Assembly: GCF_048403405.1 (NCBI RefSeq) | Contig: NZ_CP183129.1 | Length of the DNA stretch: 64,000 bases | Strand: one strand, 5' to 3' | DNA from: Escherichia coli | Lineage (GTDB): Bacteria; Pseudomonadota; Gammaproteobacteria; Enterobacterales; Enterobacteriaceae | In this document: positions 18,530-23,421 of the stretch, piece after piece | Position numbering within the stretch: the stretch's first letter is position 1 | Layout of the letters: the number at the start of each line of letters is the position of its first letter | Made by a program: the position numbers and the translations under genes | Notes under the pieces: model-generated | Told to the model about the DNA's origin: nothing | What the model saw: the letters and a program-made list of their open reading frames with translations, nothing else | Databases searched by the model: none

Positions 18530-20692
18530 ATGGCCTTTATGCTAAGTCCTTTGCTCAAACGCTATACCTGGAACAGCGCCTGGCTGTATTACGCGCGTAT
18601 TTTTATTGCGCTTTGTGGAACCACAGCGTTTCCGTGGTGGCTGGGTGATGTAAAACTGACGATTCCGCTGACGCTGGGGATGGTGGCAGCGGCGCTGACC
18701 GATCTCGATGACCGGCTGGCGGGACGTTTGCGTAACCTCATCATTACGCTGTTCTGCTTTTTTATCGCCTCGGCCTCAGTAGAACTGCTGTTTCCCTGGC
18801 CCTGGCTATTTGCGATTGGCTTAACGCTCTCAACCAGCGGCTTCATTTTGCTCGGCGGTCTGGGTCAACGCTATGCAACAATTGCTTTCGGTGCATTGCT
18901 GATCGCCATTTACACTATGTTGGGAACATCACTGTATGAGCACTGGTATCAGCAGCCGATGTATCTTCTGGCCGGTGCCGTCTGGTACAACGTCCTGACA
19001 CTTATTGGTCATCTGCTTTTCCCGGTCCGCCCGCTGCAGGATAACCTGGCGCGTTGCTATGAACAACTGGCGCGTTACCTTGAGCTCAAGTCGCGCATGT
19101 TTGATCCTGATATTGAAGATGAAAGCCAGGCACCGCTGTACGATTTGGCTCTCGCCAACGGTCAGCTGATGGCGACATTGAATCAGACGAAACTCTCGCT
19201 GCTGACCCGCTTACGTGGCGATCGTGGTCAACGGGGAACGCGTCGCACGCTGCATTATTACTTCGTCGCGCAGGATATTCACGAGCGTGCCAGCTCTTCT
19301 CATATTCAGTATCAAACATTGCGTGAACATTTTCGCCACAGCGACGTGCTGTTCCGTTTTCAGCGGCTGATGTCGATGCAGGGCCAGGCGTGCCAGCAAC
19401 TGTCACGCTGTATTTTGTTGCGTCAGCCTTATCAACATGATCCGCATTTCGAGCGCGCTTTTACGCATATTGATGCTGCGCTGGAGCGGATGCGCGATAA
19501 CGGCGCACCTGCCGATTTACTCAAAACACTGGGATTTTTGCTGAACAATTTACGCGCCATTGATGCCCAACTGGCAACAATTGAATCAGAACAGGCCCAG
19601 GCACTGCCCCATAATAATGACGAAAATGAGCTCGCTGATGACAGCCCGCACGGATTGAGTGATATCTGGCTGCGTCTTAGCCGTCACTTCACGCCGGAAT
19701 CCGCCCTCTTCCGTCATGCGGTAAGAATGTCGCTGGTGTTGTGCTTCGGCTACGCCATCATTCAGATAACCGGAATGCATCACGGGTATTGGATCTTGCT
19801 GACAAGTTTGTTTGTCTGCCAGCCAAACTATAACGCCACGCGCCACCGCCTGAAGTTAAGGATTATTGGTACGCTGGTAGGTATCGCCATTGGCATTCCT
19901 GTGCTGTGGTTTGTACCGTCACTGGAAGGGCAACTTGTGCTACTGGTTATTACCGGCGTGCTCTTTTTTGCCTTCCGTAACGTGCAATACGCCCATGCAA
20001 CGATGTTCATCACACTTTTGGTGCTACTTTGTTTTAACTTGCTGGGTGAAGGTTTTGAAGTGGCGTTACCTCGCGTAATCGATACGCTGATTGGTTGTGC
20101 CATTGCGTGGGCGGCGGTGAGCTACATCTGGCCTGACTGGAAGTTTCGCAATCTGCCGCGAATGCTCGAACGCGCCACAGAGGCCAACTGTCGGTATCTC
20201 GATGCCATACTGGAACAATACCATCAGGGGCGTGATAACCGTCTGGCGTATCGTATTGCCCGCCGCGATGCACACAACCGTGATGCTGAACTGGCGTCGG
20301 TGGTATCAAATATGTCCAGCGAACCGAACGTTACCCCGCAAATTCGCGAAGCCGCGTTTCGGTTGCTGTGCCTTAACCATACGTTTACCAGCTATATCTC
20401 AGCCCTCGGTGCTCACCGGGAGCAGTTAACTAATCCTGAAATTCTGGCGTTTCTTGATGACGCCGTTTGCTATGTTGATGACGCGCTACATCATCAACCT
20501 GCTGATGAAGAACGCGTCAATCAGGCATTAGCTGGCCTGAAACAGCGGATGCAGCAACTTGAACCTCGGGCAGACAGCAAAGAACCTCTGGTCGTACAAC
20601 AAGTTGGGTTATTGATTGCATTACTGCCAGAGATTGGTCGTCTGCAACGCCAGATTACTCAAGTTCCGCAGGAAACTCCTGTTTCGGCGTAA
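18530..20692 (+). CDS. yccS: Inner-membrane protein YccS (YccS/YhfK family)
   Basis: ORF of 720 aa; the true start may be the internal Met at 18539 (MLSPLLKRYTWNSAWLYYARIF...). Multi-TM N-terminal domain. Confidence 0.88.
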   Translation: MAFMLSPLLKRYTWNSAWLYYARIFIALCGTTAFPWWLGDVKLTIPLTLGMVAAALTDLDDRLAGRLRNLIITLFCFFIASASVELLFPWPWLFAIGLTLSTSGFILLGGLGQRYATIAFGALLIAIYTMLGTSLYEHWYQQPMYLLAGAVWYNVLTLIGHLLFPVRPLQDNLARCYEQLARYLELKSRMFDPDIEDESQAPLYDLALANGQLMATLNQTKLSLLTRLRGDRGQRGTRRTLHYYFVAQDIHERASSSHIQYQTLREHFRHSDVLFRFQRLMSMQGQACQQLSRCILLRQPYQHDPHFERAFTHIDAALERMRDNGAPADLLKTLGFLLNNLRAIDAQLATIESEQAQALPHNNDENELADDSPHGLSDIWLRLSRHFTPESALFRHAVRMSLVLCFGYAIIQITGMHHGYWILLTSLFVCQPNYNATRHRLKLRIIGTLVGIAIGIPVLWFVPSLEGQLVLLVITGVLFFAFRNVQYAHATMFITLLVLLCFNLLGEGFEVALPRVIDTLIGCAIAWAAVSYIWPDWKFRNLPRMLERATEANCRYLDAILEQYHQGRDNRLAYRIARRDAHNRDAELASVVSNMSSEPNVTPQIREAAFRLLCLNHTFTSYISALGAHREQLTNPEILAFLDDAVCYVDDALHHQPADEERVNQALAGLKQRMQQLEPRADSKEPLVVQQVGLLIALLPEIGRLQRQITQVPQETPVSA

Positions 20693-21284
20693 GAGAGTCA
20701 GCCCATTCTGCAAGCTCCTGGCGGCGTGCCACCGGGAGCGCAGCTTCATGAATGCCGATAATGGCCCCTTCAAGCATAAACAGAATCTTTTCTGTCACCA
20801 GACTGTTTTGCTGCCGCAGTCGCAACCAACACATTTTTGCCCCAAGTATACGTAACGCCCGTACATCCTTAATCCCCACCTCCCCGAGAATCGCTTCCAG
20901 ATGAAAAGACATATTGGGCAAATCTTTCAGTCTTTCCCGGGTATTGCGCGTGCTTTTCTCTTTCAGCGCTGCATCGAGAGAATATTTCGACAGACGCACC
21001 AGCTTCAGTTGATTTCGCCATAGACTTTCATCAACCCGATAGTAATTGAGGGTAACGGATCGGCCACACTTTTTATATGTCAGCCAGACAGGCGGATGTT
21101 TTACACAGTACTGTGCACTTTGCTCACAAGCCCGAAGATACAACTCACCATCAGAAACCATCGCAAACACCGTGTCGTCAACGGTCAGGCTGTAACTGCC
21201 AAACAATGATCGGTATTCAATTGTGCCCAACGTTGCCAGGTATTCTTGTGATTTATAGATCCGCTTATAGGAGAGGCTTTTCAT
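20655..21284 (-). CDS. sxy: Competence regulator Sxy/TfoX
   Basis: 209 aa, MKSLSYKRIYKSQEYLATLGTIEYRSLFGSYSLTVDDTVFAMVSDGELYLRA...; TfoX N- and C-domains. Confidence 0.92.
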   Translation of the reverse strand: MKSLSYKRIYKSQEYLATLGTIEYRSLFGSYSLTVDDTVFAMVSDGELYLRACEQSAQYCVKHPPVWLTYKKCGRSVTLNYYRVDESLWRNQLKLVRLSKYSLDAALKEKSTRNTRERLKDLPNMSFHLEAILGEVGIKDVRALRILGAKMCWLRLRQQNSLVTEKILFMLEGAIIGIHEAALPVARRQELAEWADSLTPKQEFPAELE

Positions 21285-21460
21285 AAAATTCCTTTTAAAA
21301 TCATAACATAAAAGAATGATTCACATTAACGGATCCGTTAACTACGAAAATAGGCAACTTATTCTTAAGGGGCAAGATTAATTTATGTTTTCCCGTCACC
21401 AACGACAAAATTTGCGAGGCTCTTTCCGAAAATAGGGTTGATCTTTGTCGTCACTGGATG

Positions 21461-21480
21461 TACTGTACATCCATACAGTA
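21461..21480. promoter_or_regulatory. LexA operator (SOS box) of sulA
   Basis: tactgtacatccatacagta: perfect palindromic CTGT-N8-ACAG LexA box about 23 bp upstream of the sulA start codon. Confidence 0.9.
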
Positions 21481-21502
21481 ACTCACAGGGGCTGGATTGA
21501 TT

Positions 21503-22012
21503 ATGTACACTTCAGGCTATGCACATCGTTCTTCGTCGTTCTCATCCGCAGCAAGTAAAATTGCGCGTGTCTCTACGGAAAACACTACAGCCGGGCTTAT
21601 CAGTGAAGTTGTCTATCGCGAAGATCAGCCCATGATGACGCAACTTCTACTGTTGCCATTGTTACAGCAACTCGGTCAGCAATCGCGCTGGCAACTCTGG
21701 TTAACACCGCAACAAAAACTGAGTCGGGAATGGGTTCAGGCATCTGGGCTACCCTTAACGAAAGTGATGCAGATTAGCCAGCTCTCCCCTTGCCACACCG
21801 TGGAGTCAATGGTTCGCGCTTTACGCACGGGCAATTACAGTGTGGTGATCGGTTGGTTGGCAGATGATTTGACTGAAGAAGAGCATGCTGAACTTGTTGA
21901 TGCGGCAAATGAAGGTAACGCTATGGGGTTTATTATGCGTCCGGTAAGCGCATCCTCTCACGCAACGAGACAACTTTCCGGGCTAAAAATTCACTCTAAT
22001 TTGTATCATTAA
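21503..22012 (+). CDS. sulA: SOS cell-division inhibitor SulA
   Basis: ORF 21497..22012 (TTG start in track); the ATG at 21503 gives [43 protein letters not shown]... (169 aa). Confidence 0.95.
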
Positions 22013-22235
22013 GTAAATTTAGGATTAATCCTGGAACTTTTTTTGTCGCCCAGCCAATGCTTTCAGTCGTGACTAATTTTCCTTGCGGAGGCTTGTCTGA
22101 AGCGGTTTCCGCGATTTTCTTCTGTAAATTGTCGCTGACAAAAAAGATTAAACGTACCTTATACAAGACTTTTTTTTCATATGCCTGACGGAGTTCACAC
22201 TTGTAAGTTTTCAACTACGTTGTAGACTTTACATC

Positions 22236-22368
22236 GCCAGGGGTGCTCGGCATAAGCCGAAGATATCGGTAGAGTTAATATTGAGCAGATCCCCCGGTGA
22301 AGGATTTAACCGTGTTATCTCGTTGGAGATATTCATGGCGTATTTTGGATGATAACGAGGCGCAAAAA
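22236..22368 (+). promoter_or_regulatory. ompA 5' untranslated leader (~133 nt; mRNA stability element and sRNA target site)
   Basis: gccaggggtgctcggcataagccgaagatatcgg...gataacgaggcgcaaaaaATG matches the well-known long ompA leader as I recall it. Confidence 0.75.
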
Positions 22369-23421
22369 ATGAAAAAGACAGCTATCGCGATTGCAGTGGC
22401 ACTGGCTGGTTTCGCTACCGTAGCGCAGGCCGCTCCGAAAGATAACACCTGGTACACTGGTGCTAAACTGGGCTGGTCCCAGTACCATGACACTGGTTTT
22501 ATTCCTAACAATGGTCCGACCCACGAAAACCAACTGGGTGCAGGTGCTTTTGGTGGTTACCAGGTTAACCCGTATGTTGGCTTTGAAATGGGTTACGACT
22601 GGTTAGGTCGTATGCCGTACAAAGGCGACAACATCAACGGCGCATACAAAGCTCAGGGCGTTCAGCTGACCGCTAAACTGGGTTACCCAATCACTGACGA
22701 TCTGGACATCTACACTCGTCTGGGTGGTATGGTATGGCGTGCAGACACCAAGGCTAACGTACCTGGTGGCGCATCTTTTAAAGACCACGATACCGGCGTT
22801 TCTCCGGTCTTCGCTGGCGGTGTTGAGTATGCGATCACTCCTGAAATCGCTACCCGTCTGGAATACCAGTGGACCAACAACATCGGTGACGCACACACCA
22901 TCGGTACTCGTCCGGACAACGGCATGCTGAGCCTGGGTGTTTCCTACCGTTTCGGTCAGGGCGAAGCAGCTCCAGTAGTTGCTCCGGCTCCAGCTCCGGC
23001 ACCGGAAGTACAGACCAAGCACTTCACTCTGAAGTCTGACGTTCTGTTCACCTTCAACAAAGCAACCCTGAAACCGGAAGGTCAGGCTGCTCTGGATCAG
23101 CTGTACAGCCAGCTGAGCAACCTGGATCCGAAAGACGGTTCCGTAGTTGTTCTGGGTTACACCGACCGCATCGGTTCTGACGCTTACAACCAGGGTCTGT
23201 CCGAGCGCCGTGCTCAGTCTGTTGTTGATTACCTGATCTCTAAAGGTATCCCGGCAGACAAAATCTCCGCACGTGGTATGGGCGAATCCAACCCGGTTAC
23301 TGGCAACACCTGTGACAACGTGAAACAGCGTGCTGCACTGATCGACTGCCTGGCTCCGGATCGTCGCGTAGAGATCGAAGTTAAAGGCATCAAAGACGTT
23401 GTAACTCAGCCGCAGGCTTAA
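22369..23421 (+). CDS. ompA: Outer membrane protein A (350 aa allele with variant loop sequences)
   Basis: ORF 22297..23421 (GTG start in track); the ATG at 22369 gives [44 protein letters not shown]...; Ala-Pro hinge [10 protein letters not shown] and C-terminal OmpA-like peptidoglycan-binding domain. Confidence 0.96.

Follow-up and report, generated by a model that had tools for sequence, protein, structure and literature searches.

The 218-bp intergenic region between sxy and sulA in the analysed Escherichia coli chromosome is, almost certainly, best explained as a whole by two back-to-back, non-overlapping promoters, each with a regulator of its own. The region occupies positions 21285-21502 of the window, by which we mean the entire 64-kb stretch of DNA that was analysed. 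Two sigma-70 promoters with starts 134 bp apart would be read outward from it, one into sulA under a LexA (SOS) operator and one into sxy under a CRP-S site. This is the well-known sulA/sxy control region of E. coli, conserved, ordinary and already described; what is added here is a base-resolution map of both promoters, their start sites, regulator sites and conservation, and the separation of the region into two independent halves.

The gap, exactly 218 bp long, is bounded by sxy (tfoX/yccR, 209 aa, 20655-21284, minus strand), recognised from the open reading frame list and its RefSeq name, and by sulA (169 aa plus stop, ATG at 21503, 21503-22012, plus strand), taken from the annotation. In the identical region RefSeq names the sxy product 'CRP-S regulon transcriptional coactivator Sxy' and annotates yccS, sxy, sulA, ompA and matP around the locus. 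SulA is 100% identical to the K-12 protein, and the gap differs from that of K-12 MG1655 by a single base (C at 21449, T in K-12) within a non-conserved promoter spacer. The gene names given by the first-pass annotation, a reading of the sequence without database searches, are confirmed by these comparisons, and experimental knowledge from K-12 can be transferred directly because only one base separates the two gaps and the SulA proteins are identical. K-12 coordinates (U00096.3) were obtained as 1042422 minus the window position. Several RefSeq E. coli chromosomes share a 1358-bp sxy-sulA stretch with the window at 100% identity, and 5425 of the 5426 complete E. coli genomes contain it; the intergenic DNA is at least 99% identical in 5072 genomes.

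Several features of the surrounding DNA were recorded alongside. The convergent 3' ends of yccS (plus strand) and sxy (minus strand) overlap by 38 bp (20655-20692), as they do in K-12. The ompA allele (22369-23421) shares 97% identity with that of K-12 and encodes 350 instead of 346 aa; a four-residue insertion and substitutions are clustered near residues 46, 87-89 and 129-138, which we take to be surface-loop regions. At the gathering threshold, the only Rfam matches in the whole window were a PyrD leader (37660-37733, minus strand) and a tRNA (10710-10794, plus strand), the latter corresponding by colinearity to K-12 serT, tRNA-Ser(UGA).

For comparative analysis, 80 Enterobacteriaceae loci of many genera were collected by a SulA-based search, among them Escherichia, Citrobacter, Salmonella, Enterobacter, Klebsiella, Raoultella and Kosakonia, and combined with the window to give 81 sequences. 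The sxy gene is divergent from sulA in 80/80 loci, and the gap measures 215-220 bp in 70 of the 81 sequences. A single LexA box is present in each of the 81, at a distance of 19-22 nt from the ATG of sulA, with arms that are invariant in 80 sequences and centres that vary; most sulA boxes of other Enterobacteriaceae, for example TACTGTATATCCATACAGTA and TACTGTATATTCATACAGTA, lie nearer the consensus than that of E. coli. On the sxy side, TGCGA-N6-TTYMR was present in all 80 loci, again with conserved half-sites and a variable spacer. A phylogenetic footprint of 70 intergenic sequences from many genera (mean identity to the window 72%) resolved the LexA arms, the sulA -35 element, the CRP-S half-sites and the sxy -35 and -10 elements as conserved blocks, and the promoter spacers as variable.

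The sulA transcription start was placed from SMRT-Cappable-seq data of K-12, in which the primary 5' end of a sulA-ompA transcript was mapped to 1020949 on the reverse strand. This position corresponds to an A at 21473 of the window and leaves a 30-nt leader (21473-21502, plus strand). Conservation and the geometry relative to this start assign the -35 hexamer to TTGATC (21438-21443, plus strand), which contains a GATC and lies within a block, TTGATCTTTG, that is at least 97% conserved. A 17-bp spacer connects it to the -10 hexamer TACTGT (21461-21466, plus strand), which ends 7 nt upstream of the start and is at the same time the left arm of the LexA box TACTGTACATCCATACAGTA (21461-21480). 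Relative to this start, the box extends from -12 to +8 and therefore includes both the -10 hexamer and the start; it lies just upstream of the sulA ATG at 21503, as had been stated. Its position over TACTGT fits repression by promoter occlusion. A LexA dimer bound across the -10 hexamer and the start site would exclude RNA polymerase, DNA damage would free the sulA promoter through RecA-stimulated self-cleavage of LexA, and SulA, once made, would block formation of the FtsZ ring.

In the SMRT-Cappable-seq data, a 'novel' read-through transcript of sulA-ompA (b0958|b0957) is listed at the same start, and in the window it would run from 21473 to 23421; such read-through would bring part of the transcription of ompA under the control of LexA. 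The regulator RcdA has also been reported to bind at sulA-sxy, with a footprint inside sulA and sulA mRNA unaffected, and the RcdA box TTGTnnACA had no exact match within 21285-22012.

For sxy, a primary 5' end was reported on the sxy strand by Cappable-seq in K-12 at U00096.2 1020306 (score 58.6). The offset between U00096.2 and U00096.3 was derived from the start-site data themselves and set to 777, the only value that gave purine starts at 12 of 12 sites together with pyrimidines at -1 in 10 of 12. The sxy start accordingly falls at U00096.3 1021083, which is an A at 21339 of the window, and SMRT-Cappable-seq placed the start of b0959 one base away, at 1021082 (21340). From the Cappable-seq start a 55-nt leader extends to the gene (21285-21339, minus strand), with the Shine-Dalgarno sequence AAGGA running from 21294 to 21290. 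The -10 hexamer TATTTT (21347-21352, minus strand), assigned by conservation and the mapped start, ends 8 nt upstream of the start and appears across genera as TAT(T/G)TT. The -35 hexamer TTGCCC (21370-21375, minus strand), assigned by conservation and geometry, is separated from it by 17 bp and coincides with a CTTGC block that is at least 97% conserved. Cappable-seq also recorded a second, weak primary 5' end at U00096.2 1020352 (score 3.4; 21293, minus strand), 9 nt upstream of the sxy ATG and within the ribosome-binding region.

Both mapped starts are adenines, at a distance of 7-8 nt downstream from the -10 hexamer proposed for each, and both promoters have 17-bp spacers and match the sigma-70 consensus at only 7 of 12 hexamer positions. 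A simple sigma-70 consensus scanner, at its threshold, called no promoter within 21200-21600. Because of the 7/12 match and the absence of a scanner call, the promoter assignment rests on the start-site data and on conservation. Such a match is as expected for one repressed and one activator-dependent promoter.

The CRP-S site was identified as a 22-mer at 21410-21431 (centre 21420.5) from its half-sites and their conservation. Its core, TGCGA-GGCTCT-TTCCG, occupies 21413-21428, with the half-sites at 21413-21417 and 21424-21428, and is the only TGCGA-N6-TTCCG site in the gap. The E. coli CRP-S motif was reportedly defined by Sinha et al. in 2009 as TGCGA-N6-TTCCA, which the site matches at 9 of 10 positions; Jaskolska and Gerdes are said to have mapped Psxy and characterised its autoregulation in 2015. 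Matches of at least 9/10 to this motif occur 10 times in the 64-kb window, so the motif alone is not distinctive and the site is identified by the literature and by conservation. PMC6728893 names TGCGA as the promoter-proximal and TTCCG as the distal half-site of Psxy, and the window matches this published pair and its orientation exactly. The divergent sxy promoter that had been proposed inside the gap is borne out by the two published start-site sets together with these half-sites. The sole 10/10 match in the window, TGGAAAGTGATTCGCA, lies elsewhere (35394-35409, reverse orientation) and may be due to chance. In a scan of 21285-21502 for CRP sites, the CRP-S motif matched the known site at 9/10, and the canonical motif (TGTGA-N6-TCACA) returned nothing notable, its best match being only 7/10, at 21293.

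The centre of the CRP-S site lies at -81.5 relative to the start of sxy and at -52.5 relative to that of sulA. The distance to sxy suggests class-I-like activation from upstream; a point against this is that CRP acts in class I fashion canonically from near -61.5, -72.5 and -82.5, and the centre is one base off the last of these. At this position the asymmetric CRP-S site would activate the sxy promoter, and it would do so by cAMP-CRP acting together with Sxy, which would make the circuit one of positive autoregulation. Positive autoregulation of K-12 sxy by cAMP-CRP and Sxy through this CRP-S site has been reported. As in other E. coli CRP-S sites and in Psxy, one conserved TGCGA half-site is paired with a degenerate one across a 6-bp spacer; the whole site does not differ from K-12 and is the very one used in published Psxy reporters (PMC6728893). 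The tfoX promoters of Vibrio, unlike that of E. coli, are described in the literature as carrying canonical CRP-N sites.

The proximity of the two halves raises the possibility of shared control, in which CRP-Sxy at 21410-21431 would modulate sulA, or LexA would modulate sxy, so that SOS and competence would be coupled. In E. coli just 6 bp separate the CRP-S 22-mer from the sulA -35 hexamer, and the conserved divergent arrangement and gap length described above also speak for it; SulA is moreover a Lon substrate, as Sxy is according to the literature. Against this, CRP activation is restricted to certain helical phases, and -52.5 falls between them. The LexA box, for its part, is located outside the sxy promoter, 122-141 bp upstream of its start, and the main text of the LexA-dependence study does not mention sxy.

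Further evidence on this point comes from the long-gap loci. In ten Klebsiella/Raoultella-type loci, 110-247 extra bp are placed exactly between the two modules, with the CRP-S site on one side and the -35 hexamer of sulA on the other; such inserts are seen in Klebsiella, Raoultella and two Enterobacter loci. The extra segments are mutually dissimilar and poorly conserved, and all regulator sites are retained, so that adjacency of the modules is not required. In the 10 insert-bearing loci, 62-63 nt separate the sulA -35 hexamer from the ATG of its gene. The CRP-S site, 128 nt from the sxy ATG in the window, lies 126-128 nt from it in 10 of 11 long-gap loci; the exception is K. indica, with 248 nt. 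Since the inserts separate the modules and each module keeps the distance to its own gene, the modules are independent and not shared. This argues against a shared operator region and for two abutting independent modules, and we consider shared control very unlikely. The earlier description of a sxy-sulA divergent control region therefore stands insofar as both promoters lie within the 218 bp, with the qualification that the region consists of two independent modules. The loci with inserts are numbered L039, L042, L043, L045, L055, L060, L066, L070 and L072 (Klebsiella/Raoultella) and L041, with the segments at ~2040-2500 in the coordinates of each locus.

To characterise the operator itself, the window was scanned with the LexA consensus TACTG(TA)5CAGTA. 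The box at 21461-21480, which was assigned from its sequence and from the published heterology index, is the sole site in 64 kb with three or fewer mismatches; the second-best site has 6, and TACTGTACATCCATACAGTA itself occurs once. It matches the consensus at 17 of 20 positions, and the three mismatches are central. The 7-bp arms TACTGTA and TACAGTA form a perfect inverted repeat around the asymmetric centre CATCCA, and the core CTG-N10-CAG (CTGTACATCCATACAG, 21463-21478) is not accompanied by a second CTG-N10-CAG in the gap. The first-pass annotation had called the box a perfect 20-bp LexA operator and thought a deviation from consensus on formal scoring unlikely. The site, its position and its uniqueness hold, and it is the one outstanding LexA site in the gap; perfection is limited to the arms, the palindrome deviating from the consensus at the three central positions.

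The box fits the E. coli LexA-box family by its core, its match to the consensus, its place on the promoter and its conservation at orthologous loci. Judged by its sequence it is the classical sulA LexA operator, with LexA dependence taken from the K-12 literature. In K-12, radiation induction of sulA was absent in a non-cleavable lexA3 mutant, and AZT induced sulA 20-fold, with a 15-fold dependence on LexA cleavage. The heterology index of the identical K-12 box is given as 4.65 ('binds LexA tightly') in one publication and 5.4 in another. The strongest SOS boxes score 1.8-2.8, so the sulA operator is strong but not the best. The alternative reading of the palindrome, as an inverted repeat due to chance or a structural element (a hairpin, for instance) instead of a LexA site, is already effectively refuted and has next to no probability left: CTG-N10-CAG alone is indeed common (26 in the window) and CTGT-N8-ACAG has a chance expectation of ~0.8, but none of 100 dinucleotide-preserving shuffles contained a 20-mer within three mismatches of the consensus, the arms are held across genera around a variable centre, the 20-mer is identical to the K-12 operator with published LexA-dependent control, and the fold of the sulA leader RNA is less stable than those of shuffled sequences (z = +2.3).

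Comparison with known systems places the LexA operator among familiar relatives. The K-12 sulA (sfiA) operator and promoter share the 20-bp box, the -35 and -10 hexamers, the leader and SulA with the present sequence, the only promoter difference being the spacer base at 21449. The strongest E. coli SOS boxes (tisB, umuDC, dinD and sbmC) and the consensus have in common with the sulA box CTG-N10-CAG, the TACTGTA/TACAGTA arms and the overlap with the promoter; the sulA box differs in its centre, CATCCA in place of alternating TA, and in its higher index compared with the strongest boxes. The Salmonella sulA box has an index of 1.49, on its own study's scale. The pair uvrA-ssb is likewise divergent with a LexA box in the gap. 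Unlike in that pair, the sulA box sits on a single promoter and is more than 120 bp away from the other start, that of sxy, on its upstream side; insertions can separate the two halves.

The sxy start is overlapped by a further conserved element. A perfect 16-bp palindrome with a central GATC, TTAACGGATCCGTTAA, spans -2 to +14 relative to the sxy start (21326-21341); across 78 distinct enterobacterial sequences, conservation of its core, TAACGGATCCG, is 90% or more. We know of no function for this palindrome. In the alignment, a second block, TGATT (21303 to 21299, minus strand), is found 15-19 nt before the ATG of sxy, where it closely precedes the Shine-Dalgarno sequence; its TGAT is invariant and the final T is conserved to ~90%. 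In most genera CAUGAUU is complementary to AAUCAUG at the start codon, and the pairing would enclose the Shine-Dalgarno sequence. The pairing is weaker in E. coli, where it includes G.U pairs, and the changes between genera are one-sided only, with covariation no better than in shuffles.

Three RNA pairing models of the sxy leader were evaluated on the 78 distinct sequences. One places a hairpin at the 5' terminus, another closes a hairpin around the Shine-Dalgarno sequence and the AUG, and the third is a long-range interaction between the 5' end and codons 7-9. In these models 79-86% of cells were paired, and covariation was no better than in shuffles in any of the three. The E. coli leader as a single sequence is not unusually stable (z = -1.45), and a search of the region against Rfam gave no family at the gathering threshold or at E up to 10, chance snoRNA matches only. 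In H. influenzae sxy and Vibrio tfoX the leaders exert translational control, and the conserved blocks of the enterobacterial leader could similarly pair with the start-codon region; in contrast to those leaders, the enterobacterial one is only 55 nt long and has neither an Rfam match nor covariation support.

Two further observations concern the beginning of sxy. Codons 7-9 (21258-21266, minus strand), AGCGGAUCU, are complementary to the 5' end of the leader, GGAUCCGUU, and the two form a 9-bp long-range pairing in the minimum-energy fold, with covariation that is not significant. Aligned by eye, the Arg codon among them is CGG or AGG in most genera. CGG and AGG are rare Arg codons, and their use here hints at a constraint at the nucleotide level. 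A conserved upstream open reading frame starting at ATGATT was considered and rejected, as its frame and stop vary between genera in an alignment by eye: in E. coli it is out of frame and ends at an overlapping TGA, in Klebsiella it is in frame, and in Citrobacter it forms a two-codon open reading frame.

Taken alone or together with TGATT, the palindrome TTAACGGATCCGTTAA may represent an undescribed control element that keeps sxy silent, an idea that we put forward tentatively and consider unlikely. Possible forms of such an element would be an operator for a repressor, the target of a small RNA, or a leader structure pairing with the start-codon region.

The intact sulA operator indicates a normal circuit in this strain and no more, and serves as a positive control for the scan; the site is a textbook example from the SOS response, and its promoter is in standard use as an SOS reporter. 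The sole thread in the region worth the attention of specialists is the conserved palindrome at the sxy start. To our knowledge, no natural inducing condition is known for sxy in E. coli, and a silencing element at its start, if true, would bear on why none is known.
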